DNA of 64,000 nucleotides from an uncultured Planctomycetia bacterium (GTDB taxonomy: Bacteria; Omnitrophota; Gorgyraeia; Pluralincolimonadales; Pluralincolimonadaceae): contig CAZYUB010000011.1 of the NCBI GenBank assembly GCA_964650515.1, forward strand, positions 4,798-68,797. The letters are read 5' to 3'. Shown here in pieces: positions 5,277 through 62,755 of the stretch. Below the pieces are notes generated by a model that saw only the letters and a list, made by a program, of their open reading frames with translations, had not been told where the DNA came from and ran no database searches. Within the stretch, counting starts at the first letter, position 1. The number at the start of each line of letters is the position of its first letter. The translations under genes were made by a program, and so were the position numbers.

Positions 5277-6074
5277 TTATTGATGGGCCGCCTCCGTCAG
5301 TTTTTGAACGTATTCGCCTACATTGCGTATGAACCGCCTCTTCCCGGAATTCCTCTCGATCTCTTTGACTATTGCAGAGCCGACTATCACCCCGTCGGCC
5401 GCACCGCATACCTGCTTTACCTGCCCGGGGCTCGATACGCCGAATCCGACGCACACCGGGAGTTTCGAATGCCTCTTGATGAGCTTCACCCTTTGCGCAA
5501 GCTCCGCGGGCAATGATGACCTCGCGCCGGTTATCCCTGTAAGCGAGACATAATATATGAATCCCCTCGTCCTGCCCGAGACAAGCTTTATCCTCTTAGC
5601 GGTGCTCGTCGGGCTCAAAAGGAATACGGTCGCGAAACCCTTCTTCCTCGACGGGGCGATAAGCTCGGCCGACTCTTCCGGAGGCAAGTCGGGTATAATG
5701 ACGCCGTCGACGCCGCTCTTCGAACAATCCGATACGAACCTGTTTACGCCGTATTTCAGTATCGGGTTGTAATAGCCCATGAGGACTATCGGTACCTCGG
5801 TCTTCTTCCTGAGCTCTTTAACGGCGGCGATTATATCTTTGAGCTTAGTGCCCCTCTTAAGCGCCCTTTCGGACGATAACTGTATCGTGGGGCCGTCCGC
5901 CACGGGGTCGGAGAACGGGACGCCGAGCTCTATTATATCCGCGTCGCGCGACGCGAATTCGAGGACAAGCTTCTTCGTGTTCGCCAGGCCGTAATCGCCG
6001 GCTGTGAAGAAAGCTATCAGCGCTTTTCGTCCGTCTTTCTTAAGTTCCCTGAATTTTTTATCTATCCTGTTCAT
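5277..6074 (-). CDS. trpA: Tryptophan synthase alpha chain
   Basis: 265 aa; ...IELGVPFSDPVADGPTIQ... canonical TrpA motifs. Confidence 0.93.
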   Translation of the reverse strand: MNRIDKKFRELKKDGRKALIAFFTAGDYGLANTKKLVLEFASRDADIIELGVPFSDPVADGPTIQLSSERALKRGTKLKDIIAAVKELRKKTEVPIVLMGYYNPILKYGVNRFVSDCSKSGVDGVIIPDLPPEESAELIAPSRKKGFATVFLLSPTSTAKRIKLVSGRTRGFIYYVSLTGITGARSSLPAELAQRVKLIKRHSKLPVCVGFGVSSPGQVKQVCGAADGVIVGSAIVKEIERNSGKRRFIRNVGEYVQKLTEAAHQ

Positions 6075-6075
6075 A

Positions 6076-7260
6076 TTATTTTAGAAGCATCCGTGAGGCC
6101 ATGTCCACGTCCTTATCGCCCCTGCCGGAAAGGCAGACGACCACTAGGTCGCTCTTCCTGAGTTTCTTCGATATCTTCGCGAGGTACGCGATCGCGTGGG
6201 ACGATTCCAGGGCCGGTATTATGCCTTCGGTCTCTGACAACATTCGAAAGGCGTCCAATGCCTCGCTGTCCGTCACGGATACGTATCTTGCCCGTCCCGT
6301 TTCCTTGAAATATGCGTGCTCGGGCCCTACGCCCGGATAATCGAGCCCTGCGGAGACGGAGTGCGCTATCTTTACCTGGCCCGCATCATCCTGCAGCAGG
6401 TAGCTCTTGCTTCCGTGAAGGACGCCGACCTCGCCCCGTTCGAGAGTGGCCGCGTGCATTCCGGTCGAAAGCCCTTTTCCCGCCGCTTCGACGCCTATGA
6501 ACTTCACGTTCCTGTCGCCGATGAACCTGTAGAAGAGGCCCATGGAATTCGAACCGCCGCCTACGCACGCAATAAGGTAGCCCGGAAGCCTGCGCTCCGC
6601 CTTAAGTATCTGGTTCCTGGCCTCCGCGCCTATGACCGACTGGAAATCCCTTACCATCATAGGGAAAGGGTGCGGCCCTGCGACCGAGCCGATGCAATAA
6701 TGGGTGTCCCGGACGTTCGTGACCCAGTCCCTCATCGTCTCGTTCATAGCGTCTTTCAGTGTCCTGCTGCCGCTCGTGACGGTAGTTACCTTCGCCCCGA
6801 GCAATTTCATCCTGAAAACGTTCAATGACTGGCGGCGTACGTCCTCTTCGCCCATGAAGACCTCGCACTCAAGCCCGAAAAGCGCCGCGACAGTCGCGGT
6901 GGCGACGCCATGCTGCCCTGCCCCGGTCTCGGCAATGATCCTCTTCTTGCCCATTCTCACTGTAAGCAGGCCCTGGCCGAGCGTGTTATTTATCTTATGG
7001 GAGCCCGTATGGAGCAGGTCTTCCCTCTTCAGGTAGATCTTCGGGCCCTTCAGGAATTTACTAAGGCGTCGGGCGTTATAGAGCTTGCTCGGCCTTCCGG
7101 CGTATTCTTCGAGGTAATACCGTAACTGCTCGGAGAATCTCCTGTCCTTTTTTGCGGCCTTATAGGCGGCTTCAAGCTCTTCAAGCGCCGTCATCAGCGT
7201 TTCGGGGACGTATTTTCCTCCGAAGACGCCGAAATGGCCCTTTATGTCAGGCTGTTTCAC
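6076..7260 (-). CDS. trpB: Tryptophan synthase beta chain
   Basis: 394 aa; HTGSHKINN (PLP-Lys), GGGSNSMG motifs. Confidence 0.95.
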
Positions 7261-7360: not shown

Positions 7361-7648
7361 TTACTTGATTATTATCTCGGAGTTCTCGCGTGTTTTGCTT
7401 TGAAGCTTAAGGCGTTCGTCTATGACGGATCGGAGTATATCGCCCTTCGTTGATGGTTTTATTTGCATGGATGGGTCATCCTTCATCTTCAGGGCAAGCG
7501 CGAGTTTCAGGTCCTTGTCGAATATCGGCTCTCCGTTGACCGTGGCTATCACCTTACCCGCTGAAACTGCGGAAGCCGGCTTTTCAGCCGGCCTCCCGCA
7601 TCCTGCCACAATGAACGCAAGCAACAATATTGCCGCCGCGCGTATCAC
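7361..7648 (-). CDS. Small lipoprotein with SurA N-terminal-like chaperone domain
   Basis: 95 aa; signal peptide + lipobox (AGCG); VIATVNGEPIFDKDLKLAL...SVIDERLKLQ resembles SurA/PpiD N-domain; start abuts stop of giant gene (coupled). Confidence 0.55.
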   Translation of the reverse strand: MIRAAAILLLAFIVAGCGRPAEKPASAVSAGKVIATVNGEPIFDKDLKLALALKMKDDPSMQIKPSTKGDILRSVIDERLKLQSKTRENSEIIIK

Positions 7649-10600
7649 TTAATTTCCCTGGTTCCAGGTTCCTGCGCCCACACCTTCGAACGTGCCGGCT
7701 TCGGTTCCGGTGTAAGTACCGCCGGCCTGGCCGTTGAAACCCACGTCTCCGGGCGCGGTGCCCGTTACATTAGCGGTCCACTGACCCTCGTTCCATTGTG
7801 TACCGGTAAGGGTGGCGTTTATATTCCCGTCGTTAAAATTCAACGACCAGTTCTCTCCGCCGGTATAACCGGAATAGCTGCCTCCGAAGAGCGCGGCCCA
7901 TATGCCGTTCATGTCGAGCGCGCTCTGGGCATAGAAGCTTATGTCCATGCTGCCCGTTATTGTTCCCGCGGCGCCAAGCGGGCCGTTGCCTTTCAGAAGG
8001 GCCGTATAAGTCTCCGTAATAGGCATATTTACCATTTCGGCGATCGCGTAATTATCGAAACGAAGCACGCTTGTATCCAGCTCCGCGAGGTCTACCCATT
8101 CGCCTACGAACGCGGCCTGTATGGTGGTATCGACACCCGCTTCGTAGAAACCGGAGATGTCGCCATTTACGCGTCCGACTTTCATCGCCGTGTATTCCTC
8201 GGCCTCGGGATCCCAATTCTCGGGCGCAAGGTATATACCGCGGTAAGAGCCGGTAACATCGCCTTCTTTTACGCCGTCATTGTCATAGTCCCAGGCGCCG
8301 TTGGTTCCATAAGCGCTAAACAGGACATAGCTGTCCGTGGTGTCATCTTCAGAAACCACGCCGCCCAAAGCCGTCCGCCATACGCCATCGGTGACGACGG
8401 CATCCGACTGCGCGAGCATTACGCCGCTGACAATGCCCCAGGTGTCATACCCCTCTATATTTGCGATAGAGGCCTGGGCTATCTGCGCTTCGAGCGGATT
8501 GCCGTTGATGCTTCCTTCGCCGTACGCGTTGAAAGCGTCCTCGGCGACTGCCATATTATTCGTAAGTTCCGCCGGGTCCATGTCTATATACTGCATTACG
8601 ACGTGAGGCGTCCAGGTGCCGTCGGCCTCCCATATGCCTACCTGCATGTCTTCGCCGTAATCCAGGTATTCATTCGGCATAGCGCAATAAATGCCTTCCG
8701 CATCTCCGCGCAGTATGCCCGCCTGGTATCCGTCTTCTCCCGGAGAAATGAACAAAGCTGCGGTATACATATGGGACAGGACCGACATATTACCGGAACG
8801 GGAGGTGCCCACGGTCCATCCCCAGAACGCGCCTTCGCCGTCAGCCGTTGTGTCAGACCCGTCATAACCGTTGAAGCTGTTGATCTCGGATCCTACGAGA
8901 TATGAGCTGCGGTCCAGGTACCCCTCGTATTCTCCCATGGCGATCACATCAAAGGCCCCGTTAGCCCACCAATCCTGCGCGGTGCTTCCTATATTGCCGT
9001 AGGTGATGCCGTCCTGCATGAATCCTTCGCCGTAAACACCTATACCGCCGCTGGACGAACCGCTCAGGGTAAGGTCCTCGGACTGCGCTACGCCAAGCGA
9101 AAGGGCTTCCCATGCGTCTTCTTCCGTATCATATGCCCCGAGCATCTTGCCGTTAAATGAGATCAGGGTTGTGTTTGACAACACTCTTCCGGATACATCG
9201 GCGCTGAAACCGCCGTCTTCCCATGATGTGCCGTCGATGAAAGCGAGCGTATACGTCGAGTAGAAGCCGTCTCCCTCATCTTCCACATCGCCCATTACGG
9301 CGGTCCATGCGCTCTCGGGATCGCCGACAAATACGCCCGAACTGCCCGCTCTCCAGACGCTCCAATCCTGGTCTACCAGGCCCATCGTCTCTCCGTCGAG
9401 CGTGCCTCTTATATCACCGCCGATGACACCGTAAATATCATCCGAATCGATCACTTCGCTTGTGCCCGAGAGCAGCACCGTAGGGTCGTAATCCGTCGGC
9501 ATGTCGAGGAAATACGCGAGTTTTCCTTCCGCCCCGTACATCCCGATAGACGGGTAGAAATCGCCGTTAAAATAATCTGAGTTGCCGGCGCCGTCTACCG
9601 ACATGATATAACCGGCGCGGTTGCCTTCGTCCGTCTCCCTTATATAAATAGAGAGAAGCATGCCCTTAAGCCTGTTGTCGAGCGAGGTGCCTCCCATGGT
9701 CCCGTAAGCGACGGCGTTGTCATCCGTTATTACGTAGAAATCGGAAGCCCATAATTTGTATTCCGGAACGCCGTCCTCGTTATAATCGGGATTCCAGAAC
9801 CCTCCGATAAGGGTCATGTCCGCGGGCCCCTCCCAGATATTGCCGGACCCTCCGAAGACGCCGTCCATATATCCGTAATCGCAGTTGAATCCGCCGTAGT
9901 AATCCTCTACATAACCGAACGCGCCGTCCATCAGGATGCCTGAATAAGCGAGCGGCTCCGTCTTCCATTCTCCTATAGCGGCTCCGGCCCATGAAGTATA
10001 GTCATAGTATTCGCCGCCGTCATAATAGTAGTGGTCTGTCGCCGTTCCGCGGAGGTCGCCGTCTATCCTGCCTATCATGCCCTCTTCGAGGTCGATGAAC
10101 GCACCGGCAACGTCCGCCGAGATCGCGTTGTCGCCGTAGATAACGTTCTTGGCAGTGATAAGCAGGCGCTCGCCGTAACCTTCTTCAGAACTGCCTAACG
10201 CGAGGCCGTTCTCGGCAACGTCGCCGTCATCCTTCTCGAACCACCCGCCCATCTTCACGTTAAAGATGCCCCACGGCATGTCCGGCAATGAGTAGCTATA
10301 CGCTTCTTCAATACCGCCGTAGATCGTGCCGTTACCGGCGAACGAGCCGCCGACCTGTATATCTCCCAGGTATTCCTCATTGATGTTTTCGTATCTCAGG
10401 TCCGCGGGTGCGAAGGAATAGCCCTCTACAGTCTCCGTCGACAGGTCCATCGAGACCTGCCATAGGCCTATCCCGTCATAATACTCTCCTTCGGCGCCGC
10501 CCTTCATGATGCCGACCCTGCCGTCCGGGGCCGCGAATATCGCGATGACCCTGCCGTCCGACATGATCCCATCCTTCCAGATGCCGGTCGTGAAGCCGTA

Positions 10601-13600
10601 ATACGCTCCTCCGTCAAGGGTCGTATTATCGTCTTTTTCCACATTATTGCTTTCGATCTCGGTATTCCAGAACTTCGGCGCGCCGTCATCGTAATCGTAC
10701 CAGAAACCGCCTATAGCGCGGGCGATGAACGACTTATTATTCCACCAGTCCTCCACGGTCGAGCCCATAAGCCCGTGTTCTTCGCCGGCCCAGGATATAT
10801 AATCTTCCTCATTATCGGCATAAAGGCTGCTCTTGCCTTCGCCCCAATACCCGCTGAATGTCAGCCTCTTTCCGTTCCATGTTCCGGATCCCGAGCCCAT
10901 CCAGGTCCCGTCGTCGTAATATGCGCCGTCTATGTCGCCGGATATGGTTCCCATCCTCGTGCCGGTCAGGAATACGCCGTCGAGCGAGCCGCTGAACCAT
11001 TCCTCTCCCTGCCCGTTGACATCCGCTATCCAGTATCCGTAATCATTCTCAGCCGTACCGTATGAGTCCTCATACGACAGGTAGGAAGCGTCTTCCGGAG
11101 CGGACCCGATAAGTTCCGCCAGCGGAGTGGACGTATCCCATGTCCCGTATTCGGACGTGCCGCCGAGATAATTCCCGTTGCTGTCATACGAATAGGAGTA
11201 TGAGTATGTGGACCCGTCATCGTAGTAATTCGTGTAAGAATACTGTTGGGTATTATCTACATAGTGATATTCGGATGTATAGCCATAGGTGTTATTATCA
11301 TAGTATTGGTAATAGTAATTTCCGCCGTCATTGAGCTGGTACTGGCCGTTGACGTATAACCCGGGATTGTAGCAACCGAACGAGTCGTTGCCGCCCATCT
11401 TCGCGTAGAATATTCCGTCAGTTACTTCCGGCAGCTCATACTCTCCCGTAAGCCTCTGGCTGTATATGCCCCAGTCGTATGATGTATGGTTGGCGTAGTC
11501 CACTATGCCGGCCGTATAAAGCTCATCCTGACCGCCGAAGAACCCTTCACCGGAGTAATTGCCTTCAAGCCTCCCCTCGCCCTCTTCGGACCATATCGAA
11601 TCCGAAAGTTCCCCCGCGCTTATGCCGGCTATGACGGGTGTTATATTGGTGTCATCTCCAAAATCACCTTCGAACATATAGGCGCCGGCCAGGTTGGAAT
11701 ACGCGCCCTCGACCCTTCCGGATTTCACGCCAGCATAGCCGTCGGGATTTATGTATATGATGCGCGCGGACCCTTTTATAGCACTGTCCTTGCCTGTGAC
11801 CGAGGATAGCCCGTAATATGCGCCCTCCTGCCCCTCATCGCTGAACTCCCTTCTGTCTTCCGATCCGTTAACATCGCTTGAGAAGTCGGTCATCCAGACG
11901 AAATCTCCGAGAGAGCCGGATTCGTCCTCTTCCATCTCGCCTATCGAAACAAGATAGAATCCGTCCTCACCCCAGAGGTCTCCGACGGTCCCTGCGAGGC
12001 CGCCGATGTGGCCGGCATGCTCGAACCCGCCGTAATCATCGTAATCGTATTCGTCATACTCGTACTCATACTGGTACGGGGTATACGCGCAATTGTACAA
12101 ATAGGCGCTGGATGAAAGCTCCTGCTCTACGAACCCTCCCGCTCCCGTACCTTCTACGCCTTCTCCCGCATACGCGAGTATAGTGCCGTAATAGGCGCCG
12201 AGATGGGATGTGTCAAGATAGGAACCCGAGATATCCAACCTTAAGGCGCCGTTAAGGTCGTCAGCCCCTTCGATCAGTGAGAAGAAATACCCGTCATTAT
12301 AATCACCTCCGGCGACAGCGCTCCAGTTCGTAAGGCCGTTCTGGTTCATGTATCCGCCGTAATGTGCTTCGCGCCAGATACCCCAATCCTGGCCCTCGAT
12401 CTTGGCCATCTGCCTGTCGAATTCCGTTTCGAAATACCCGTTGCCGCCGTCAAAGGCGAAATTCAGGTTGCCATAACCCCATCCCTCGACCGTGTTATAT
12501 TCCGTTTCCGGGTCAAGTTGAGCCATCGGAATGACGTAAAGGTCGCCGCTTCCTGCCATGTCGCCCCAGTAGTATCCATCCATTTCGTTTGCTGTGCTGG
12601 AACCGGAGAGGACTCCGAACAGGTTGCCTGCCATGCCGGACGGGTCTATATATATAGAAGATACGACGGTGTCCCAGCTGTGCATGATACCGCCGCTCCA
12701 GCCGTAGAACACGCCTCCGTCCACGCCTTCGCCCTCGACGTTACCGATGAAGACCCTGTTATACGGGTTATCATATGTGCCGGCGGCATCCATTGAAATA
12801 GTGCCGGACCACTGTTCGCTCAAAGGCGTAGTGCTCGAAAGCGCCAAATTGAAAAAATTGTTCTCCGAGGGCCCTTCATAGCCGAATGCGCCTTCGATCA
12901 TGCCGTTCATCGTAACGGGAGCGACGATAACTTCTTCCCCGCCACCGCTGCCCGTATTGCCGCCCTCGCCGGGGCCTATTATGTCTGTAAAGGGTTTGTC
13001 GGAAAATACGTTATTGGGGTTGTTGTCCGGATTCTCGTTGCCGCCGGTCCCGCCGCCGGTGTAGCCCTCAGGCCCGCTGTACCCCTCGGCCTCTCCGCCG
13101 AATTCCCAGCCCTCATGCCAGTTCGACCTCTGGTCGTCTGAAGGCGCCAGGGGATTGCTGATATTCCCGTTCCCGTCGACCGTGGAGCCGGTCCCCATCG
13201 GTACGTTTTGGGTGGTCCCGGATATCAGGCTTCTGAGCACGCCGTTGCCTTCCTCGAAGTAAGCATTGGTAAGGTTCGGCAGTATATTCATGAAAAGCAC
13301 GGTGCCGCGGACACATGCTACCGCGTTGGGGGTCTTTACCTCGAACTTCGAATTACCCTTGAGCTTTTCCACCTGTGCCCTGAGCTTGCCGCCCGTAGAT
13401 TCAAAGAGGTTTTCGTATTCGCCATTGCTTCCGTTCGACAGTTTCGAGATCGTGACGTTGGAATTCTGCTGCAGCGTTATGATATTCCCGTTCTCGACCT
13501 TGAATTCCGCCTTGCCGTTCTGCCTCGTCTCGATAGAATCGCCGGTCTTCACCGTCTCGTTGAGTTTAGCGTCATGCCAGGCCTTTGAGCCCTTGTTCTT

Positions 13601-14344
13601 TATCCTGACATCTCCTGCCAATTTAACGATCACGGCCTTCATCTCTCCCGCCTGGCTGTATCCTTCGGCAACAGGACGCTTGCCTGATGCGATGTCGGAA
13701 GATGCGGCCTCGTTTTTCATGACCGATGTATCGGCCTCATGCGACCTCTTCTCTGAGGCGAGCATCATCCTCGGTGAGGAAGGCTCGTTATCCGCAGCGA
13801 CTACGGAGACCTCCCCGCCTTTTATTTCGACCTTCTTATCCGGAGAGGAAGGGTTCGACAGCGAGTACCTGCCGTTGAGCACGGCTACGGCGGTCGAGGA
13901 TTTCTGGAATATTACCACTACGTCCGTCCCTTTTACGGAACCGTTCGCGTTCGGCGTGTTTATGGTAAAGCTGTCCTTTGCAGAGGATTTTGATATAATT
14001 GCCCTGATCTTGCCGCGTTCGACGTTCAAAACGGCGCTTATCCTTTTGCCGTCGTCACCGGTCCTGTACTCCGCAACATCCAGTTTTGTCTTTTCCGCAA
14101 GCCTGACCACAGACCGGTCCGCGAAGGTTATTTCGGCCTTTGAGGCGCTCTTCGTGCGCACGGAGTCGCCTGCTTCGATCTCCGATCCGAGCACGGCCGC
14201 AGACGAAGACATGGATCCCGCCTTGAAAAGGTCTACACTGCCCTCAAGCGAGGTTATGCTGCCTATACCGGAGGCAAATGCCGTTGAGCTCCCGAGTATA
14301 AGAAGGGCTGCCAGTGCAATGGTCTTGATGCTGCGGTCTTTCAT
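7649..14344 (-). CDS. Giant secreted protein (2231 aa): signal peptide, two tandem FecR domains, then ~1800 aa highly acidic Gly/Tyr/Asp/Glu/Trp-rich region with divergent internal repeats
   Basis: SPase-I type signal (TAFA|SG). FecR-like segments (..FTINTPNANGSVKGTDVVV.. and ..FEVKTPNAVACVRGTVLF..). Remainder almost devoid of K/R. Recurring modules (EGAYYG..DGRVIAIFAAPDG.., GDIDGAYYDDGTW, IGRIDGDLRGT / IGGDIRGTLDG) and DxDxDG-like loops. SD AAGGAGA 8 nt upstream. Confidence 0.8.
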   Translation of the reverse strand: MKDRSIKTIALAALLILGSSTAFASGIGSITSLEGSVDLFKAGSMSSSAAVLGSEIEAGDSVRTKSASKAEITFADRSVVRLAEKTKLDVAEYRTGDDGKRISAVLNVERGKIRAIISKSSAKDSFTINTPNANGSVKGTDVVVIFQKSSTAVAVLNGRYSLSNPSSPDKKVEIKGGEVSVVAADNEPSSPRMMLASEKRSHEADTSVMKNEAASSDIASGKRPVAEGYSQAGEMKAVIVKLAGDVRIKNKGSKAWHDAKLNETVKTGDSIETRQNGKAEFKVENGNIITLQQNSNVTISKLSNGSNGEYENLFESTGGKLRAQVEKLKGNSKFEVKTPNAVACVRGTVLFMNILPNLTNAYFEEGNGVLRSLISGTTQNVPMGTGSTVDGNGNISNPLAPSDDQRSNWHEGWEFGGEAEGYSGPEGYTGGGTGGNENPDNNPNNVFSDKPFTDIIGPGEGGNTGSGGGEEVIVAPVTMNGMIEGAFGYEGPSENNFFNLALSSTTPLSEQWSGTISMDAAGTYDNPYNRVFIGNVEGEGVDGGVFYGWSGGIMHSWDTVVSSIYIDPSGMAGNLFGVLSGSSTANEMDGYYWGDMAGSGDLYVIPMAQLDPETEYNTVEGWGYGNLNFAFDGGNGYFETEFDRQMAKIEGQDWGIWREAHYGGYMNQNGLTNWSAVAGGDYNDGYFFSLIEGADDLNGALRLDISGSYLDTSHLGAYYGTILAYAGEGVEGTGAGGFVEQELSSSAYLYNCAYTPYQYEYEYDEYDYDDYGGFEHAGHIGGLAGTVGDLWGEDGFYLVSIGEMEEDESGSLGDFVWMTDFSSDVNGSEDRREFSDEGQEGAYYGLSSVTGKDSAIKGSARIIYINPDGYAGVKSGRVEGAYSNLAGAYMFEGDFGDDTNITPVIAGISAGELSDSIWSEEGEGRLEGNYSGEGFFGGQDELYTAGIVDYANHTSYDWGIYSQRLTGEYELPEVTDGIFYAKMGGNDSFGCYNPGLYVNGQYQLNDGGNYYYQYYDNNTYGYTSEYHYVDNTQQYSYTNYYDDGSTYSYSYSYDSNGNYLGGTSEYGTWDTSTPLAELIGSAPEDASYLSYEDSYGTAENDYGYWIADVNGQGEEWFSGSLDGVFLTGTRMGTISGDIDGAYYDDGTWMGSGSGTWNGKRLTFSGYWGEGKSSLYADNEEDYISWAGEEHGLMGSTVEDWWNNKSFIARAIGGFWYDYDDGAPKFWNTEIESNNVEKDDNTTLDGGAYYGFTTGIWKDGIMSDGRVIAIFAAPDGRVGIMKGGAEGEYYDGIGLWQVSMDLSTETVEGYSFAPADLRYENINEEYLGDIQVGGSFAGNGTIYGGIEEAYSYSLPDMPWGIFNVKMGGWFEKDDGDVAENGLALGSSEEGYGERLLITAKNVIYGDNAISADVAGAFIDLEEGMIGRIDGDLRGTATDHYYYDGGEYYDYTSWAGAAIGEWKTEPLAYSGILMDGAFGYVEDYYGGFNCDYGYMDGVFGGSGNIWEGPADMTLIGGFWNPDYNEDGVPEYKLWASDFYVITDDNAVAYGTMGGTSLDNRLKGMLLSIYIRETDEGNRAGYIMSVDGAGNSDYFNGDFYPSIGMYGAEGKLAYFLDMPTDYDPTVLLSGTSEVIDSDDIYGVIGGDIRGTLDGETMGLVDQDWSVWRAGSSGVFVGDPESAWTAVMGDVEDEGDGFYSTYTLAFIDGTSWEDGGFSADVSGRVLSNTTLISFNGKMLGAYDTEEDAWEALSLGVAQSEDLTLSGSSSGGIGVYGEGFMQDGITYGNIGSTAQDWWANGAFDVIAMGEYEGYLDRSSYLVGSEINSFNGYDGSDTTADGEGAFWGWTVGTSRSGNMSVLSHMYTAALFISPGEDGYQAGILRGDAEGIYCAMPNEYLDYGEDMQVGIWEADGTWTPHVVMQYIDMDPAELTNNMAVAEDAFNAYGEGSINGNPLEAQIAQASIANIEGYDTWGIVSGVMLAQSDAVVTDGVWRTALGGVVSEDDTTDSYVLFSAYGTNGAWDYDNDGVKEGDVTGSYRGIYLAPENWDPEAEEYTAMKVGRVNGDISGFYEAGVDTTIQAAFVGEWVDLAELDTSVLRFDNYAIAEMVNMPITETYTALLKGNGPLGAAGTITGSMDISFYAQSALDMNGIWAALFGGSYSGYTGGENWSLNFNDGNINATLTGTQWNEGQWTANVTGTAPGDVGFNGQAGGTYTGTEAGTFEGVGAGTWNQGN

Positions 14345-14362: not shown

Positions 14363-15871
14363 TTAAAATTTGTACTCGATGCCGAGGCTGTAAATGCTCC
14401 TGTCGTAATCGTATACCGCTATATTTGAATGGTCCTTTACGTATGTATACCTGAATTGGAGCTCGGCTTCCTTCCAGAAGTTATACCCGAGCATGGATGA
14501 TAGCGTATATGTCTGGTCATCCCTCCTGACACCGAAGATCGAGTTCGTGTTCGAGAAATCCTGCAGGTAGACGTCGCCGGCAAGGCTCGCCTTGAATCTC
14601 TTCAGGAAAGGATACAGGACCGTTGCGGTGATCCTGTTGCCGAGGTACTCCCAGTTCTTTCCCTTCGTGTCTTCCTTGTTGACACCGTAGCGCAGTCCGA
14701 GGAAACCCTTGTTCTCTGCGAAGAAGAAGTAGTATCCGAGCCCGCCGCCGTAGTCGTTGGAATTGCGGTCCTCATCAGGTATGAACGGGTCCCTCGCGAA
14801 ATCTTTCTTCTTGTAATCGAAATTTGTCTGCAGCATATGGTTCCGGGCGAATATATAATTGACTACAGGGCTTGCGCTCAGCGTTGTCATGTATTTGGAT
14901 TCGCCGACATCGGTATAGTTGTATCCGACAACGACCCCCGCGGTCCCTTTGTCGAGGTAATAGTTAGGCGTCACCGTTACCGTATGGCTCATCACGTCAT
15001 AGAGCCCCAATTTGTTCTGGTGCGCGAAATACATCGAATATTGGCCGTCCACCCCGAACCTTTCGGCGAATTTCTTCCGGTACTGCCCCATGAACGTCAC
15101 GACCTCCCTCCAGTCGCTCTCGTCGCTTATGCCCGACGCGACAGTATCGTCCCCGGGTTTAAGCAGCACGTTCGTATCATACTGGCCTGAAACGTTCAGC
15201 GTGGCCCTGAAAGGCCTTTCTGCCGTCTCTTTCCTTTTCAAGGCATCAATGTATTCGTTCGAAAGCCCGGCTATGTCCGAGTTCGGGTCGAGGATTATGA
15301 TATCCCTAAAGACCTTCTTTGCCTCATCGAATCTCTTCTGTTTTATGTTGGCAAGCCCGATTTGGTAATCCGCCGATTGAGACAAGGAAGTATCGAGCGC
15401 CTTAGCGTTCTCGAAGGAAGTGATCGCCGCTTCATTATCGTTATCCTTGAGCAATACCAGCCCTTTAAGGAATGCCGTCTGTGCCGGCTTAACGTTCTCG
15501 CGTTCCGCCACTTCGATATAGTTTCTCGCTTCCTTAAGGTCTCCGAGCTGGTAGAGGACTTCCACTAATTCGAGCAGGGCCTCCTTTATCCTCGGCGTAA
15601 GGGTAACCGCGTCGACCAGCTGTTTTTTAGCTTCCTTGTAATCCTGCAGCTGCTTATATGTTATACCGAGGTAATATGCCGCAAGCGATGATTTCGGATC
15701 TGTTTCCCTGACTTTCCTGAGGGCTGATGCCGCTTCATCAAAATTCTCTTGTTTGTATAACTTGATGGCCTGTTCCAGTTGAGGATCCGTTTCAGCGATA
15801 AGTAAACCGGGGAGAGTTAGCAATATTGAGACGAAAATTACCGTAAAGGCAGGAAATACTTTTTGCGGCAT
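14363..15871 (-). CDS. Outer-membrane protein: N-terminal TPR repeats + C-terminal beta-barrel (Slam/DUF560-like architecture, inferred)
   Basis: 502 aa; signal peptide; four or more TPR-like helical repeats (AAYYLGITYKQLQDYKEAKKQL...); C-terminal half has alternating aromatic/Gly-rich strands and ends ...SLGIEYKF (terminal Phe, OMP signature). Confidence 0.55.
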   Translation of the reverse strand: MPQKVFPAFTVIFVSILLTLPGLLIAETDPQLEQAIKLYKQENFDEAASALRKVRETDPKSSLAAYYLGITYKQLQDYKEAKKQLVDAVTLTPRIKEALLELVEVLYQLGDLKEARNYIEVAERENVKPAQTAFLKGLVLLKDNDNEAAITSFENAKALDTSLSQSADYQIGLANIKQKRFDEAKKVFRDIIILDPNSDIAGLSNEYIDALKRKETAERPFRATLNVSGQYDTNVLLKPGDDTVASGISDESDWREVVTFMGQYRKKFAERFGVDGQYSMYFAHQNKLGLYDVMSHTVTVTPNYYLDKGTAGVVVGYNYTDVGESKYMTTLSASPVVNYIFARNHMLQTNFDYKKKDFARDPFIPDEDRNSNDYGGGLGYYFFFAENKGFLGLRYGVNKEDTKGKNWEYLGNRITATVLYPFLKRFKASLAGDVYLQDFSNTNSIFGVRRDDQTYTLSSMLGYNFWKEAELQFRYTYVKDHSNIAVYDYDRSIYSLGIEYKF

Positions 15872-15936: not shown

Positions 15937-15965
15937 AATATACCATTTGTAGAGGGTTATGTCAA
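15937..15965 (-). promoter_or_regulatory. Near-consensus sigma70 promoter for the OMP / giant-protein / lipoprotein operon
   Basis: Minus strand: TTGACA (15965-15960), 17-nt spacer, TATATT (15942-15937); ~60 nt leader with AAAGGGG SD before ATG 15871. Confidence 0.6.
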
Positions 15966-15976
15966 GTAAATATTTG

Positions 15977-16004
15977 TTGACAAGAGTCGTAAAATTGGTA
16001 TAAT
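15977..16004 (+). promoter_or_regulatory. Near-consensus sigma70 promoter (extended -10) for the PEP-CTERM gene
   Basis: TTGACA (15977-15982), 16-nt spacer, TGgTATAAT (TG 15996-15997, TATAAT 15999-16004); GAGGTAAG SD before ATG 16051. Confidence 0.6.
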
Positions 16005-16050: not shown

Positions 16051-16572
16051 ATGAAAAAAATATCATTAATATTTGCGGTATTTACGTGCCTTTTTGTCTC
16101 CTTATCGCCCGCTTACGCCGAATATGACCCGAATTACCAGGGTTTCCAGATGTACACCGTTGCAAGCAATACTTCCTCTTTTGCCGTTTCGGATTTCGAG
16201 CTGGGTTCAACGCCTTATCTGTATATTCAGCTTCCGAACCCTCCCGGGGGGCTTTGGTACTCTGAGGTCGAGAGTGACTGGTGGAACGGTAGCTTGTTCG
16301 AGGGTGATGCCGACAGGACAGGTTTTCAATCGGTATACCATATAGAGCTGACAGGACATGACTGGTCGGATGTTTCCAACGCCGGGACATGGACGATAAA
16401 CGCCGATTATTGGTATAAAATGCTCGGGAGCGGATATGTCATATCCTCCGACTCGGGATATGCTACGTTCACGATGAAGAATACGACTACGGTCCCTGAG
16501 CCTGTTTCGACCATGCTGTTCCTCGCCGGAGGATCGGTGCTTTTCGGAAGGCGTTTGCTGAGACGCAAATAG
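16051..16572 (+). CDS. PEP-CTERM sorting-domain secreted protein (exosortase substrate)
   Basis: 173 aa; N-terminal signal peptide (..SPAYA|EY); C-terminus VPEP-VSTMLFLAGGSVLFG-RRLLRRK = PEP motif + TM helix + basic tail. Confidence 0.8.
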   Translation: MKKISLIFAVFTCLFVSLSPAYAEYDPNYQGFQMYTVASNTSSFAVSDFELGSTPYLYIQLPNPPGGLWYSEVESDWWNGSLFEGDADRTGFQSVYHIELTGHDWSDVSNAGTWTINADYWYKMLGSGYVISSDSGYATFTMKNTTTVPEPVSTMLFLAGGSVLFGRRLLRRK

Positions 16573-21830: not shown

Positions 21831-22451
21831 CTAAGATGTCTTTTTAGCTTCCTGTATGAATTCCTTCATGAGTTTCATGCTCTTCCTGCCGGGTGATGAT
21901 TCGACTCCACTCGATACATCTACGGCATACGGCTTTACCTTCCCGATAGCGCCGCGAACGTTTCCCGGTTTGAGCCCGCCCGACAGTATTACGGGCCTGC
22001 CAAGCTTCTTTACGCGCAGGGCCAGGTTCCAATCAAACATTTCTCCCGTACCTCCCGCCTTGCCGGGCCTGTATGTATCAAGCAGGAAGGCGTCAACGTC
22101 ATAGCCGGACAGGCCGTCAAGATACCTTTTTTCCCCTATCCTGACCGCCTTGACTATTTTATAATATTTCTTAAGTTGTTTGCAATAGTTAATCGATTCG
22201 CTGCCGTGGAGTTGGACGCAGTCAAGCCTGCAAATTTTTGCTATCCTCAGCAATTTCCTGATATCTTCATCCACAAAAACGCCTATCAGAGACACGTATG
22301 GAGGCATTTTTGAGGAGATTGACCTTGCCTTCGATACATCTATCCTTCTCGGGCTCTTCGCAAAGACGAAACCGAGCGCATCCGCCCCAAGCCGGCAAGC
22401 GGCCTCGGCATCCTTAAGGTTCGTTATCCCGCAGACCTTTACCCTTACCAA
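21831..22451 (-). CDS. trpF: Phosphoribosylanthranilate isomerase
   Basis: 206 aa; MVRVKVCGIT... canonical TrpF. Confidence 0.9.
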   Translation of the reverse strand: MVRVKVCGITNLKDAEAACRLGADALGFVFAKSPRRIDVSKARSISSKMPPYVSLIGVFVDEDIRKLLRIAKICRLDCVQLHGSESINYCKQLKKYYKIVKAVRIGEKRYLDGLSGYDVDAFLLDTYRPGKAGGTGEMFDWNLALRVKKLGRPVILSGGLKPGNVRGAIGKVKPYAVDVSSGVESSPGRKSMKLMKEFIQEAKKTS

Positions 22452-23221
22452 CCCATGATCCTTTTGATTTCGGCGGGTATGTCGACGGATTCCATGAACG
22501 CGGTGCCTATAAGGACCGCTTTTATGCCTGTATCCGCCAGCGAAAGGATATCTTCGGGGTCCTTTATCCCGCTCTCTGAGATGACTATCTTCCCGGCGGG
22601 CACCTTCGGTATCAATTCCCGCGTCACCTGGAGGTCGACTTCCAATGTCGTCAGGTTCCTGTTGTTGATACCGATTATTTCGGCGTCTATCCCGAGCGCT
22701 TTTTCGAGGTCGCGTTCATTATGCACCTCGACGACCGTATCCATCCCCAGGGACTTCGCTTCGTGGAACAGAGCCTTGAGCATTCCCCTGTCCATAGCCG
22801 TAGCGATGAGAAGGATCGCGTCCGCACCCGCGACAGCCGATTCGAATACCTGGTATTCGGAGATTATGAAATCCTTGCGCATGACCGGCAGGTCGGCGGC
22901 GTCACGGACAGACTTAAGGTCATCTATGCTTCCCTGGAAATATTTGTCTTCCGTTAGGACGGACAATGCCGAGGCCCCGCTTTTCCTGTATATCTTCGCT
23001 ATTCCTGAAGGATCGAAATCGTGCCTGATGACTCCGTGCGACGGCGACGCTTTTTTCACCTCGGCTATAAGGTTAATCCTTCCGCCTTTAGATATTGCGG
23101 ACTTGAATCCCCTGTTCTTTACGGGAACTGCTCGTTTTTCCAGATCTTCAAGAGGAAGGATCTCCTGCGCGCGTTCAAGCTTGTGTTTCTTGTGCTCAAT
23201 TATCTCCTGTAATCCTATCAT
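22445..23221 (-). CDS. trpC: Indole-3-glycerol phosphate synthase
   Basis: 258 aa; IAEVKKASPSHG motif. Confidence 0.92.
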   Translation of the reverse strand: MIGLQEIIEHKKHKLERAQEILPLEDLEKRAVPVKNRGFKSAISKGGRINLIAEVKKASPSHGVIRHDFDPSGIAKIYRKSGASALSVLTEDKYFQGSIDDLKSVRDAADLPVMRKDFIISEYQVFESAVAGADAILLIATAMDRGMLKALFHEAKSLGMDTVVEVHNERDLEKALGIDAEIIGINNRNLTTLEVDLQVTRELIPKVPAGKIVISESGIKDPEDILSLADTGIKAVLIGTAFMESVDIPAEIKRIMGW

Positions 23222-24228
23222 CTGCTTGTGACCTCCTTAAGCTGCTCAAGTTTCTTCAGGCCCTGGCCGGAATCAATAGATTCCCCGGCTATCCTTATGC
23301 CTTCCTTTATGCTGGCCGCCCCATCCGCCGCATATATCGCGCAGCCCGCGTTCATAAGGACGATATCACGATGAGGCCCTTTATCGCCGCCGAGTACAGC
23401 GAGCGCGATCTTCGCGTTCTGCGTGATATCGCCGCCTTTAAGGTCCCCGGGCTTAGCCATCTTTATCCCGAACTCCTTAGGGTTTATCTCATAATTCGTG
23501 ACGTTGCCGCCGTTAAGCTCGGATACCTGCGTCGCATCTGTTGTAGTCACTTCATCGAGCCCGTCATCACCGTGAACGACAAGCGCGTGCCTTGACCCAA
23601 GACGTCCAAGCGCCTCGGCCAACGGCCTCGTGAGCCTGTAATCGTAAACACCGAGAAGTTGGTGTGTCGCATTAGCGGGATTCGTAAGCGGGCCCAGTAT
23701 GTTGAATATCGTGCGGATGCCTATCTCCCTTCTCGGCCCGATCGCGTATTGCATCGCCTTGTGCAGCATTGGGGCGAAAAGGAACCCGATACCTATCTCA
23801 TCGAGGCATCTCGACACGGTATGTTCCTGCACGTCTATGTTCACTCCGAGGGTTTTAAGCAGGTCCGCGCTGCCGCAGTTCGAGGAGACGGAGCGGTTGC
23901 CGTGCTTCGCCACAGCGATGCCGGCGCCCGCCACTACGAATGCGGAAACAGTCGATACGTTGAACGTCTGCGACTCGTCGCCTCCGGTCCCGCAGGTGTC
24001 GAGTATGACGGGGTGTTTTGTCTTTATCTTCGTGGCGTGCTTTCGCATGACGGAAGCGGCGCCGACTATCTCATCTAGCGTCTCTCCTTTCATCCTCATG
24101 GCCGTAAGGAAGGACGCTATCTGCGACGGGAGCGCCTGCCCCGTCATTATCTCCTCCATTGAAAGCTCTATCTCGGGCCTTGAAAGGTCCTCAGACCTTA
24201 CAAGTTTCGCGATCGATTCTTTTATCAT
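23218..24228 (-). CDS. trpD: Anthranilate phosphoribosyltransferase
   Basis: 336 aa; [14 protein letters not shown] motif. Confidence 0.93.
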
Positions 24229-24794
24229 TCGGAAAGCTCCAGGAAGTTCTTAAGCAATCTCTTGCCTTCGGCAGTAAGTATAGATTCCGGATGGAACTGC
24301 ACTCCCCATACGGGATGTTTCCTGTGCCTGAGTCCCATTATCTCCTTTTCCTTCGTCCGGGCGATGACCTCGAGGCAGTCCGGCAATGACTTTCGCTCCA
24401 CTATAAGCGAATGGTACCTGATGGCCGCGAACGGGTTGCGGATCCCCTTGAATATCTCCCTGCCGTTATGGTAGATCAGCGACGTCTTGCCGTGCATGGG
24501 CCTTGAGGCCTTGACTACCCTCCCGCCGAACACCTCGCCGATGCACTGGTGGCCCAGGCACACACCGAGGATAGGCACCTTTCCCGCAAATTCACGTATA
24601 ACAGAGTTGGATATGCCGGCGTCCTTCGGGGATCCCGGACCGGGGGATATTATAATGCACCGCGGCTTGAGGCCCGAGATGGCCCTGACGGATATCTTAT
24701 CGTTGCGGATGACCTTAAGCGCCTGCCCCATCTCGCCGAGGTATTGGACGAGGTTATAGGTAAAGGAATCGTAATTATCTATCATAAGGATCAT
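24225..24794 (-). CDS. trpG: Anthranilate synthase component II (glutamine amidotransferase)
   Basis: 189 aa; class-I GATase with GVCLGHQ Cys site. Confidence 0.9.
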
Positions 24795-26270
24795 CTAAAA
24801 TATCCCCTTCTCCGCGGCTTCTATCGCCTTAATCGTGGCCTTGGCCTTATTGACGGTCTCCTGGTATTCCTTAGCGGGATCGGAATCAGCCACGATCCCC
24901 CCGCCCGCCTGGACGAATGCCTTGCCGCCCTTCATCACTATAGTCCTGATATTTATGCATGTGTCGGTGTTCCCCGAGAAGCTGAAATACCCTACGAGGC
25001 CCGCATAAGGGCCGCGCCTCGTATTCTCGAGCTCCTCGATTATCTCCATAGCCCTTACCTTCGGCGCTCCAGATACCGTGCCGGCAGGGAACGTCGCCCT
25101 GATGACATCGAACATGTCCTTATCGGGCCTTAACTTCCCGGTGCATTCGCTGACAATATGCATCACGTGCGAATATTTTTCGATGGTCATGAGCTCGGAT
25201 ACCTTTACTGTGCCGTATTTGCAGACCCTGCCTATGTCATTTCGGCCGAGGTCTACGAGCATAATATGCTCTGCGCGTTCCTTCACGCTCGACAACAGGT
25301 TCTTCTCAAGGCGTTTCTCTTCGGCTTCGGTCTTGCCCCTCGGTCGCGTACCCGCTATGGGCCTCAACTCCACTACACTGTCTTCGCACCTGACCATGAG
25401 CTCGGGAGATGCCCCTACAAGGGACATCTCCTTCATCTTCAGATAATACATATAGGGCGAAGGGTTTATCATCCTCAGCGAACGGTAGAGGTCGATGCCG
25501 GAACATGATATCTTAGTGCTGAACCTCTGGGACGGCACTACCTGTATAATGTCACCTGCCCTTATATAGCTCTTTGCTTTCCTGACCAGCGCGACGAACT
25601 CATCCTTCGTGAAATTGGAATCTATGCCCTGTTCCGTCGCGCGGATCTTCCTGCGCGCGGCCGCAAGCGGGGCGCCGAGCATCTTTATGAGGCCGTCTAT
25701 CTTCCTTATGGCGGCATCGTACGCCCGCGAAGGATCACCCTCGACGTGGGCGTTCGAGACGACCTTTATCTTGTGCTTCACGTGGTCGAATATCAATATC
25801 GTGTCCGTAAGCATGAAGACTGAGTCCGGCGCGTCGAGCTCATCCGGATTTTTCGACGGCAATTTTTCGAAAAATCTTACCATATCGTATCCCATGAACC
25901 CTACGAGCCCCCCGCAGAACCTCGGAAGGCCGGGGGTATGGACGAACTTATACCTGCCAAGTATGGCCTTCATCTCCTCAAGCGGGTCGGATGACGCGGT
26001 AAAGCGCTTCGTGTTTTCGTCTTCGGTCATCTCTATACCTTCGCCTTTGCTCCTGAATACGAGAGAAGGCCCGGAACCGAGGAAAGAATAGCGGGCTATC
26101 TTCTCCCCGCCTTCCACGGATTCGAGCAGGAAAGAATAGTCCCCCCTGTCGATCTTCATGAAGGCGGAGACCGGCGTCTCCAGGTCAGCCGTTATCTCGG
26201 CATAGACCGGGATAAGGTTGCCTTTTTTGGAGAGGCGGCCGAATTCTTTCCTGGACGGTACGTATTCCAT
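24795..26270 (-). CDS. trpE: Anthranilate synthase component I
   Basis: 491 aa; chorismate-binding family motifs; start overlaps hisI stop by 1 nt. Confidence 0.92.
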   Translation of the reverse strand: MEYVPSRKEFGRLSKKGNLIPVYAEITADLETPVSAFMKIDRGDYSFLLESVEGGEKIARYSFLGSGPSLVFRSKGEGIEMTEDENTKRFTASSDPLEEMKAILGRYKFVHTPGLPRFCGGLVGFMGYDMVRFFEKLPSKNPDELDAPDSVFMLTDTILIFDHVKHKIKVVSNAHVEGDPSRAYDAAIRKIDGLIKMLGAPLAAARRKIRATEQGIDSNFTKDEFVALVRKAKSYIRAGDIIQVVPSQRFSTKISCSGIDLYRSLRMINPSPYMYYLKMKEMSLVGASPELMVRCEDSVVELRPIAGTRPRGKTEAEEKRLEKNLLSSVKERAEHIMLVDLGRNDIGRVCKYGTVKVSELMTIEKYSHVMHIVSECTGKLRPDKDMFDVIRATFPAGTVSGAPKVRAMEIIEELENTRRGPYAGLVGYFSFSGNTDTCINIRTIVMKGGKAFVQAGGGIVADSDPAKEYQETVNKAKATIKAIEAAEKGIF

Positions 26271-45587: not shown

Positions 45588-46156
45588 GAGAAGAGTTTCT
45601 TGTTCTTAATGAAAAACGAAACGCCCGACGTGATGGTCAGGCAGACGGTCACGAGCATCACGACGAATATGAGGTTCTTGACCCATATCTCGGTATCGCA
45701 GTTCCAGAAAGAGAGAGATTTTCCCGCTTCCCTGAACACCAGGAATATCAGTATCATGAATATGGCGATCATCTGCGAAACCGTCTTATGCTTGCCGGCT
45801 TCCTCTGCCTCTATGACCTTGCCTTTCGTCAGCGCGAATATCCTGAGCCCCGTCACCGTCACCTCTCTTGCGACGATTATCAGCACCGTCCAGGCGGGTA
45901 TCAGTTTCAGCTCCACGAACGCGAGGAAAGCGGAAAGGACCAGTATCTTGTCCGCTATCGGGTCCATAAGTTTTCCAAAATCGGTGATGCCGCCATCCCT
46001 CCTGGCAAAATAACCGTCGTAATAATCGGTAAGCGATGCGGCCAGGAACGTAATGAAAGCGAAATATTTCGCGCCCGGCCACCGCGCGAACACGAAATAC
46101 ATGAAGACGAATGTCAGGAATATCCTGGATATCGTCAGCTTATTCGAGATGTTCAT
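45584..46156 (-). CDS. pgsA: CDP-diacylglycerol--glycerol-3-phosphate 3-phosphatidyltransferase
   Basis: Start at internal ATG 46156 (MNISNKLTISRI); CDP-alcohol transferase motif DGxxAR..G..D..ADK. Confidence 0.85.
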   Translation of the reverse strand: MNISNKLTISRIFLTFVFMYFVFARWPGAKYFAFITFLAASLTDYYDGYFARRDGGITDFGKLMDPIADKILVLSAFLAFVELKLIPAWTVLIIVAREVTVTGLRIFALTKGKVIEAEEAGKHKTVSQMIAIFMILIFLVFREAGKSLSFWNCDTEIWVKNLIFVVMLVTVCLTITSGVSFFIKNKKLFS

Positions 46157-61670: not shown

Positions 61671-61705
61671 ATTTCGGTTACGATCCTCATGTTTCCTCCT
61701 CGTTC

Positions 61706-61859: not shown

Positions 61860-61867
61860 AAATCCTT

Positions 61868-62755
61868 TCAAGGTCGCGGGTGGAATTTCTGGTGTATCTG
61901 CTTCAACCGCTCCTTGTTAATATGCGTATATATCTGTGTCGTTGATATGTTCGCGTGCCCGAGCAGTTCCTGGACTATCCTCAGGTCCGCCCCGTTCTGC
62001 AGGAGATGCGTCGCGAACGAATGCCTCAACGTATGCGGCGTGACCCGTTTCTTTATCTTCGCGGCCTTTACGTAATGCTTTATTACCATCCAGAACGACT
62101 GCCTCGACATCGGTTTCCCGAGGCGCGTCAGGAAGAGCGACGCGGACTCCCCTTTTTTTATGAATTTCGGCCTTGCCTTCAGCAAATATTTTTCAAGCGC
62201 TTCCTTGGCTTTGCTGCCGACAGGTATTATCCTCTCCTTCTGGCCTTTCCCGAGGCACCTCACAAAACCCATGTCCATATGCAGGTCGGTAGATTTCAGG
62301 TTCACGAGCTCCGATACCCGCATTCCCGTCGCGTACATAAGCTCGAGCATCGCCTTGTCCCTTAGCCCCTGCTTCAGGCGCGTATTGGGGCTGTCGAGTA
62401 TCGCTTCGACTTCCTTCTCGTCGAGCACGTCCGGAAGCGTCTTCCAGAGCTTCGGCGTCTCTATGACGGATGTCACGTCTTCCTTCAGGATCCTCTGGCT
62501 CGTCAGGTACCTGTGGAAGACCTTTATCGCCACAAGGTTCCTCGCGATAGAGCTCGAGTTCAGCTTGCTGTCCTTGAGGCTCATGAGGAAATCCTGTATC
62601 TGCGCCCTCTTGACCTTGTTCAGGTCGGTTATCCCGCTCTTCTTGAGGTGCTGCGTGTATTTTGAGAGGTCCCTGCCGTAGGATTCGAGCGTGTTCCTGC
62701 TCAATCCGCGTTCTACGGAAATGAAGTCCATGAACTCCCTTATGAACTCTTCCAT
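61868..62755 (-). CDS. xerD: Tyrosine recombinase XerD
   Basis: 295 aa; ..LSRNTLESYGRDL.., R..HxLRH..Y catalytic pattern (HTLRHSFATHLL...GHANISTTQIYTH). Confidence 0.85.
   Translation of the reverse strand: MEEFIREFMDFISVERGLSRNTLESYGRDLSKYTQHLKKSGITDLNKVKRAQIQDFLMSLKDSKLNSSSIARNLVAIKVFHRYLTSQRILKEDVTSVIETPKLWKTLPDVLDEKEVEAILDSPNTRLKQGLRDKAMLELMYATGMRVSELVNLKSTDLHMDMGFVRCLGKGQKERIIPVGSKAKEALEKYLLKARPKFIKKGESASLFLTRLGKPMSRQSFWMVIKHYVKAAKIKKRVTPHTLRHSFATHLLQNGADLRIVQELLGHANISTTQIYTHINKERLKQIHQKFHPRP

Follow-up and report, generated by a model that had tools for sequence, protein, structure and literature searches.

We examined a 64,000-nucleotide stretch of DNA (hereafter the window; contig CAZYUB010000011.1, positions 4,798 to 68,797) from an uncultured bacterium of the Omnitrophota, in which a giant gene on the minus strand encodes a protein of 2,231 amino acids (aa). 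This protein is a member of a large, unnamed and so far undescribed family of envelope proteins. It carries N-terminal FecR domains followed by an array of modules with a predicted β-barrel fold, and its gene lies next to that of a tetratricopeptide repeat (TPR) and outer-membrane barrel protein (hereafter the partner) that resembles Slam translocons. A gene for a CHASE2 sensor lies nearby. A Slam-like translocon, a FecR-headed multi-barrel cargo and a CHASE2 sensor form a new combination of known kinds of system, and the near-constant pairing of the FecR protein with a Slam-like partner suggests that Omnitrophota and neighbouring phyla have a so far undescribed system for export and surface sensing. 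We suspect, with about even confidence, that the partner serves to export the barrel array to the cell surface or to anchor it there, in the manner of Slam (the type 11 secretion system, T11SS), and that the FecR domains couple the array to the CHASE2 sensor.

The giant gene is a single, intact open reading frame (ORF). An initial annotation, made from the sequence alone, had described a very acidic surface protein with a cleavable signal peptide, two FecR domains and divergent internal repeats, and much of this description is correct. The N-terminus (MKDRSIKTIALAALLILGSSTAFA followed by SG) is a Sec type I signal with cleavage at ...TAFA/SG and has no lipobox cysteine at the cleavage site. 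FecR is the only Pfam family found on the protein; it matches two stretches (E 5.5e-25), which also align with each other (E 7e-13). A search of PDB sequences with the FecR region returned no relevant relative. The FecR domains are followed by a low-complexity linker, and the homologues P0006 and P0007 have Pro-rich or Ser/Gly-rich linkers at the equivalent position. All of the sequence strings quoted in the initial annotation are present (at aa 763, 840, 1136, 1263, 1424, 1641 and 2019), and the internal repeats are well above chance, with nine segment pairs at E<1e-3 (the best at 6e-10) against 0-1 in each of 30 composition-preserving shuffles. Mis-assembly of repeats, the artefact that the initial annotation had kept in view, is ruled out, given that no DNA-level tandem repeats were found in the gene and that it is reproduced in other assemblies: an orthologue of 2,227 aa, 83 % identical and with the same neighbours, occurs in two independent ones.

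The facts that turned out to be most informative had been missed at that stage. These are a module of about 300 aa, a conserved C-terminal domain, the pairing with a Slam-like TPR/β-barrel protein, and the CHASE2 sensors. The module profile, a hidden Markov model (HMM), was seeded from the non-acidic homologue P0006 and then iterated; its first pass detected the repeats of the giant (E 1.9e-13, 5.7e-11 and 1.7e-6). Four full and two partial copies of this all-β module are present in the giant, with the conserved motifs YW(I/L)xDIxG, PLAFSG, TTYDNGAYxG, AIYIDPSGNAGxLKG and QDWGI. A Tyr-rich insert lies between two of the copies, and P0006 has an equivalent stretch. Assignment of the repeats to a known family had been named as a result that would change the picture, but the module has no match in Pfam (even at E<=10), NCBIfam or PDB sequences. 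For module copy 2, AlphaFold2 with 14 aligned copies predicts 17 long antiparallel β-strands, at a predicted local distance difference test score (pLDDT) of 87.3 and a predicted template modelling score of 0.86. Foldseek found no significant match to the whole module in the PDB, and only sub-domains of the model resemble generic 8-stranded barrels. Judging from the model, each module may consist of two small barrels, so that the giant would hold roughly a dozen small soluble β-barrels.

The two faces of the strands differ strongly (p=2e-6 across 472 copies). One is conserved (1.83 bits), with 24 % Gly (up to 39 % in single strands), many W, F and Y, 7 % charged residues and a mean Kyte-Doolittle hydrophobicity of 0.5. 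The other (1.16 bits, 19 % charged) is variable and charged like the loops. A conserved, low-charge Gly/aromatic face opposite a variable, charged one argues for soluble barrels with a Gly/aromatic core. It also bears on the least likely of the rival explanations, a "poly-OMP" in which each of a chain of 8-stranded barrels would be inserted in the outer membrane. The composition of the giant, rich in G, Y, D, N and T, poor in Cys and acidic, is porin-like, a resemblance that draws partly on general knowledge. However, the pattern of conservation is the reverse of that of a lipid-facing surface, and short turns are not found in alternation with long loops. Membrane-embedded barrels of the OmpA, OmpX or PagL type were rejected on this strand-face conservation, since a hydrophobic, weakly conserved face toward the lipid is not seen, and we regard the poly-OMP as highly improbable.

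The earlier description had called the protein extremely acidic. The region from aa 401 to 2231 has an isoelectric point of about 4.05 and a net charge of about -239, and its composition (in %) is G 16.4, D 8.7, Y 7.9, E 7.4, W 3.0, K 1.3, R 1.8 and H 0.7, whereas the proteins of neighbouring genes have ordinary compositions with 11-17 % K+R. The strongly acidic character is therefore real, as is the depletion of K, R and H, but "almost free" of these residues was an overstatement, as 3.8 % remain. In the modelled copy, 28 % of the residues in loops are D or E, against 11 % in strands. Across the family, the module region contains between 5 and 19 % D+E (median 12 %; K+R median 3.8 %), and homologues with about 7 % D+E retain the same modules. 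The giant, at 16.6 % D+E, thus stands at the acidic end of a continuum, and extreme acidity is not the conserved feature of the family. We regard the negative charge, which lies in the loops and on the exposed face of the strands, as a surface property at the level of the lineage and not as the functional core.

Nor did the calcium-binding loops thought to recur in the giant hold up. Neither the single DxDxDG motif (0.23 expected, p=0.20) nor the two matches to the looser pattern [DN]x[DN]x[DN]G (0.9 expected, p=0.22) exceed chance. EF-like motifs are not enriched, and the DG dipeptide shows a modest enrichment (37 against 26 expected, p=0.014). The protein is not RTX-like, as had been stated, with no GGxGxD motif at all. 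A role in Ca2+ binding or biomineralization thus has no motif support. These results bear on a rival explanation that follows the surface or matrix protein of the initial annotation and in which the giant is purely structural and acidic, such as an adhesin, an S-layer-like coat or a cation-binding or biomineral scaffold, with no part in signalling. Its giant, repetitive architecture would fit such a role, as would the net charge, with acidic residues concentrated in loops, and the DG dipeptides; adhesins would also matter in the ultra-small, host-dependent lifestyle reported for Omnitrophota (PMC10066038). Yet the acidity varies while the modules stay the same, the DxDxDG, EF-like and RTX motifs are not enriched, and conservation is found in FecR, in the C-terminal domain and in the Gly/aromatic cores of the barrels. 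CHASE2 sensors with varying outputs also recur beside the partner/FecR pair, and a coat without signalling seems to us unlikely, ranking second among the rivals. What stands of the earlier interpretation is that the protein is secreted and probably located at the surface, a reasonable reading in view of its Sec signal and soluble β-barrel array and of the genes for a dedicated outer-membrane partner and a chaperone; a biomineral or Ca2+ function lacks support from motifs, and extreme acidity does not stand as the key feature.

The family is much larger than a word-indexed protein search indicates. That search gave seven homologues, all "FecR family protein" of Omnitrophota, whereas an exhaustive HMMER search with the module profile recovered 541 clusters at E<=1e-3, 279 of them at E<=1e-30. 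Module-bearing proteins reach 6,991 aa and 23 matched module stretches, both in P0008, the largest member found, on a 147-kb contig from NCBI. Of the 145 Met-starting matches listed, 113 have one or two FecR domains at the N-terminus, which makes FecR plus module the defining architecture; FecR domains on such a scaffold, at first considered unusual, are the family norm. In P0006, there is a faint Ig-like (Big_13) region between FecR and the modules. The literature that we examined on giant genes and very long proteins of Omnitrophota, and on the ecology of the phylum, does not mention FecR.

The last 133 or so residues of the giant form a second conserved element, detectable in minimal forms of 416-447 aa (E about 1e-7 in a single-sequence search) and located at the extreme C-terminus in 178 of 199 proteins. 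This C-terminal domain has eight strand-like segments in its sequence, no match to PF01298 or any other Pfam family at E<=10, and no relevant relative among PDB sequences. It also matches the junctions between modules (iterated HMM matches and modest BLAST pairs), and hhalign gives a weak partial match to the module. On these sequence comparisons, we provisionally consider the C-terminal domain to be related to the module junctions.

FecR proteins of the family range from 376 to more than 3,300 aa and from 0 to 10 modules, with FecR kept throughout and the C-terminal domain in most. Among complete ORFs, the 12 below 500 aa have no module, the 27 of 500-1,200 aa have 0-2, the 16 of 1,200-2,000 aa have 2-5, and the eight above 2,000 aa have 5-7; ten modules occur in one truncated ORF. 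Given the parts shared by minimal and giant forms, the core of the family consists of the signal peptide, FecR and the C-terminal domain. The giants would have units inserted between FecR and the C-terminus, each an extra barrel plus a C-terminal-type barrel.

The gene for the partner, whose product ends in ...GIEYKF, stops 18 nucleotides (nt) upstream of the start codon of the giant, with a ribosome-binding site in the gap. Its structure model (pLDDT 89) has 12 TPR helices and 14 strands, and the TPR domain is predicted to face the periplasm. An N-terminal periplasmic TPR domain followed by a C-terminal 14-stranded barrel is the architecture of the outer-membrane component of Slam/T11SS, which has TbpB, LbpB, fHbp and the hemophilins HphA/HrpC as cargo (PMC8406197). 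Eight full-length orthologues that share 43-54 % identity with the partner score above the cutoff of the Slam barrel model PF04575 (25.5-34.1 bits against 22), with matches that span almost the entire profile, and 24 of 39 partner orthologues give weak matches to TPR_Slam. At the level of sequence, membership of the partner in the Slam barrel family appears borderline.

The genomic pairing is close to constant. We gathered 80 loci with a partner alignment from GTDB species representatives and, after pooling with earlier loci, 81 were evaluable. Most are from Omnitrophota, and others are from metagenome-assembled genomes (MAGs) labelled Nitrospirota, Nitrospinota, Thermodesulfobacteriota, "Deltaproteobacteria" and Planctomycetes. 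A gene with a FecR domain lies downstream of the partner in 79 of the 81 loci, within 700 nt in 74. The known T11SS likewise have the cargo gene beside the translocon gene and a cargo with a Sec signal. The 8-stranded barrels and the conserved C-terminal β domain of that cargo have possible counterparts in the predicted barrels and the C-terminal domain of the FecR proteins.

Some loci depart from the usual arrangement. L008 and L030, both in MAGs labelled Deltaproteobacteria, are the only ones with no FecR gene after the partner; in L008 a Crp-type regulator with a cyclic-nucleotide-binding domain (10541-11221) takes that place, and the contig ends soon after. Several MAGs have two partner/FecR loci each (L064/L066, L040/L069 and L032/L065), which indicates paralogous systems within one genome. 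In a single-cell genome (L073, 5584-9232), tandem FecR genes of 602 and 606 aa follow one partner gene.

Chaperone genes are a further point of likeness to T11SS. The small lipoprotein encoded after the giant has an N-domain like that of SurA_N/EpsD chaperones; at least 30 loci have a homologue after the FecR gene, and outside close relatives these homologues are usually 190-290 aa long. In L011, genes for Skp/OmpH and SurA_N proteins follow the FecR gene, and Skp is a demonstrated holdase for Slam cargo (PMC9090332). The near-consensus promoter before the partner gene suggests that partner, giant and chaperone form an operon separate from the sensor gene.

A CHASE2 sensor occurs within 10 kb in 24 of the 81 loci, the window included, so that the trio of CHASE2 sensor, secreted FecR protein and TPR protein found in the window recurs. 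Twenty-one CHASE2 sensors lie upstream on the same strand. The output domain is a PP2C phosphatase in 23 of the 28 sensors and differs in the remainder. L010 and L011 have a CHASE2 sensor with GGDEF-HD output upstream of the partner, and between the two lie an OEP and RND efflux pair and then, immediately before the partner, a gene for a retropepsin-like aspartic protease. In L006 (4792-9873), genes for an RsbW-like kinase, a STAS protein and MlaE/F/D lie directly upstream of the CHASE2-SpoIIE gene, which suggests that the phosphatase feeds a partner-switching module. No STAS/RsbW partner-switching genes were found among the window ORFs scanned.

CHASE2, FecR and TPR genes have been found together before, in a gene cluster of adenylate cyclases in Campylobacterota (PMC9239204) and, in Burkholderia, as the "BiofilmReg" operon of a LysM-FecR protein and a CHASE2 kinase (PMC5192318). 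No mechanism has been proposed for the Campylobacterota (PMC9239204) or the Burkholderia (PMC5192318) cluster. These clusters have in common with ours the same three components, a CHASE2 output that varies and a FecR protein that is constant. They differ in that an outer-membrane barrel is part of the TPR protein described here, that 0-10 copies of the 300-aa barrel module are added to the FecR protein, and that a PP2C phosphatase is the usual output.

We suspect that the giant is a Sec-exported envelope protein and the cargo or partner of the TPR/outer-membrane barrel protein encoded upstream. In this scenario, the unfolded chain would be held by periplasmic holdases after Sec export, with the SurA_N-like lipoprotein and, in relatives, Skp as candidates. 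The partner barrel could then move the C-terminal barrel array across or onto the outer membrane, while the FecR domains would remain in the periplasm, tethered by the flexible linker. There they may contact the periplasmic CHASE2 domain of the neighbouring PP2C phosphatase, so that events at the cell surface could be relayed via FecR and CHASE2 to a cytoplasmic switch.

Several observations weigh against this reading. The window partner itself has no PF04575 match at E<0.01, although its orthologues pass the model; its best matches are DUF2860 (24 bits) and, weakly, TPR_Slam. The cargo sequence has no match to TbpBBD or any other Pfam family at E<=10, and in structure the module is weakly similar to the barrels of T11SS cargo, to no greater degree than to 8-stranded barrels of other kinds. 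No CHASE2 sensor accompanies the pair in 57 of the 81 loci; many of these are on short contigs, but some are on long ones, such as L007 and L009. T11SS has so far been described only in Proteobacteria (PMC8406197), unlike the system described here, which is found in MAGs of Omnitrophota, Nitrospirota, Nitrospinota and Thermodesulfobacteriota. The cargo also differs from that of T11SS in having FecR rather than a ligand-binding handle at its N-terminus and up to 23 matched module stretches, and the associated genes are CHASE2 sensors instead of TonB receptors.

The foremost of the rivals is that the whole protein is a periplasmic co-sensor, docked on the TPR domain of the partner, with modules that bind a ligand or cations and FecR domains that report to CHASE2; the partner would then be a channel or anchor and not a translocon. 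To our knowledge, FecR domains are periplasmic in every characterised setting, for example in FecR anti-sigma regulators. The TPR domain of the partner is on the periplasmic side, short family members (376-450 aa) would fit the periplasm easily, and passage across the outer membrane is a step that we infer. The LysM-FecR protein of Burkholderia is also periplasmic (PMC5192318). However, about a dozen barrels after a long flexible linker would be hard to accommodate in the periplasm, and the near-obligate pairing with a Slam-like 14-stranded barrel, together with holdase-type genes, is the signature of an export system. FecR-domain proteins of Leptospira, moreover, are annotated as surface adhesins. 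A purely periplasmic protein seems unlikely to us, if less so than a structural coat.

A bolder form of the export reading is that partner, FecR protein and CHASE2 together make up a trans-envelope contact sensor, which we put forward tentatively, as a possibility short of likely. A T11SS-like translocon would thread the linker through the outer membrane, with the barrel array as an extracellular antenna and FecR as a periplasmic plug and signalling head. Binding or pulling at the surface, by a host cell or a particle for example, might alter the interaction between FecR and CHASE2 and thereby switch a PP2C partner-switching cascade or, in the GGDEF-HD variants, the turnover of cyclic di-GMP.

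Other known systems share single features with the giant. The best named matches to its FecR domains are the Leptospira proteins LipL45 and Lsa33 (105 and 90 bits), which with Lsa19 are envelope or surface proteins with FecR as their main recognisable domain. These matches are confined to the FecR region and fall well short of the NCBIfam cutoffs (350 and 420), the Leptospira lipoproteins are about 180-390 aa long with no barrel modules, and the giant has no lipobox. An identity as a LipL45/Lsa33 lipoprotein was rejected on the scores and on the missing Cys at the cleavage site. With the FecR anti-sigma regulator of FecIRA, the giant has in common PF04773, which acts there in the periplasm and couples an outer-membrane protein to a signalling step in the inner membrane. 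Unlike that regulator, the giant has no cytoplasmic anti-sigma domain or transmembrane helix and begins with a cleavable signal peptide followed by FecR. The window ORFs scanned and the related loci examined contained no gene for an ECF sigma factor or a TonB-dependent transducer, and a FecIRA-type regulator was rejected on both the missing N-terminal features and the missing neighbours.

The RTX adhesins LapA and MpIBP and the inverse autotransporters intimin and invasin offer a further parallel, in that an N-terminal periplasmic domain, a segment that crosses an outer-membrane barrel and an external array of β domains follow one another. The giant differs in having a Sec signal instead of a type 1 secretion signal and no RTX repeats, in its barrel being a separate polypeptide, and in repeat domains that are predicted barrels and not Ig-like. 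The match to the LapA retention module is weak (retention_LapA, 29.8 bits, cutoff 50), and a LapA-like RTX adhesin was rejected on this score, the Sec signal and the lack of GGxGxD.

Table 1. Features of the giant gene and its neighbours in window coordinates
Feature	Position	Strand	Basis or remark
Giant ORF, 2,231 aa: signal peptide, two FecR domains, linker, module array, C-terminal domain	7649..14344	-	
Sec type I signal peptide, aa 1-24 (...TAFA/SG), lipobox absent	14273..14344	-	read from sequence
FecR domain 1, aa ~23-164	13853..14278	-	Pfam PF04773, family HMM, self-match to FecR 2
FecR domain 2, aa ~235-372	13229..13642	-	Pfam, self-match, family HMM; best match LipL45/Lsa33 FecR region
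Gly/Asn/Glu/Pro-rich low-complexity linker, aa ~396-500	12845..13159	-	G 22 %, N 12 %, E 11 %, P 9 %
Partial module copy, aa 509-682, C-terminal two thirds	12299..12820	-	
Module copy 1, aa 686-987	11384..12289	-	
Tyr-rich insert between modules, aa 988-1103	11036..11383	-	Y 15 % in aa 1001-1200
Module copy 2, aa 1104-1370	10235..11035	-	copy modelled with AlphaFold2
Module copy 3, aa 1403-1687	9284..10138	-	
Module copy 4, aa 1698-1996	8357..9253	-	
Partial module copy, aa 2023-2165, N-terminal half	7850..8278	-	
C-terminal domain, aa ~2097-2230, conserved family-wide	7655..8056	-	also ends the 416-447-aa minimal FecR proteins
Small lipoprotein, 95 aa, lipobox IVAG/C, SurA_N/EpsD-like chaperone N-domain	7361..7648	-	starts right after the stop codon of the giant
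Partner gene, 502 aa: signal helix, TPR aa 30-217, 14-stranded outer-membrane β-barrel aa 221-501	14363..15871	-	
Candidate sigma-70-like promoter, TTGACA-17-TATATT, TG-extended, 11/12	15937..15965	-	consensus match only; upstream of the partner
CHASE2 periplasmic sensor fused to SpoIIE/PP2C phosphatase, 631 aa	16585..18480	-	candidate signalling partner

The giant and its neighbours interrupt a tryptophan operon (5277-26270), with trpE, G, D, C and F at 26270..21831 and trpB and A at 7260..5277, about 14.5 kb apart. The block between the two parts holds genes for a PilZ protein, an M48 peptidase, a DEAD_2 helicase and the CHASE2-SpoIIE sensor, an ORF with a PEP-CTERM signal, and the genes for the partner, the giant and the small lipoprotein. 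This arrangement is kept in L002 and L003, with giants 83 % identical to that of the window, and in L001 (37 % identical). The PEP-CTERM ORF (16051-16572, plus strand, 173 aa), located between the sensor and the operon of the partner, encodes a signal peptide and a PEP-CTERM sorting signal (…VPEPVSTMLFLAGGSVLFGRRLLRRK) and is preceded by a perfect sigma-70 consensus, TTGACA-16-TATAAT (15977..16004). An unannotated ORF of 141-174 aa occupies the same position on the opposite strand in L001, L002 and L003.

Elsewhere in the window, a protein of 1,075 aa (37306-40533, minus strand) contains 2.8 % Trp and has F5/8 type C (discoidin/NedA-like galactose-binding) domains in three copies; it is probably a further secreted protein that binds carbohydrates. 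A PagL-like lipid A 3-O-deacylase (59387-59983, minus strand), an outer-membrane barrel, fits a diderm, lipopolysaccharide-bearing envelope of the organism. Two further minus-strand ORFs, of 501 aa (60366-61871) and 261 aa (46153-46938), have no Pfam match at E<=1e-5; the former adjoins a gene for a XerC/D-type tyrosine recombinase (61868..62755). Almost all genes of the window share the minus strand, and of 32 intervals of 2 kb, 31 have a negative GC skew (cumulative -3.26), so that the window lies on one replichore with a strong strand bias of its genes.

From the perspective of protein classification, the barrel module of about 300 aa is a new domain, with at least 541 protein clusters that contain it and no entry in Pfam or NCBIfam. 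On these data, export of the Slam/T11SS-like kind seems to occur well outside the Proteobacteria, and the series from minimal forms of about 400 aa to arrays of several thousand residues is suited to heterologous secretion assays. CHASE2 is a widespread bacterial sensor domain for which we know of no signal, and for its recurrent neighbours there is now a hypothesis open to testing, in which the TPR protein acts as a translocon or anchor in the outer membrane and has the FecR protein as its cargo. If the contact sensor were true, T11SS would extend beyond the Proteobacteria, and a first physiological input would be named for the CHASE2 domain. In the Omnitrophota, which are ultra-small and thought to be host-dependent, the barrel array may be one of the main structures of the cell surface.

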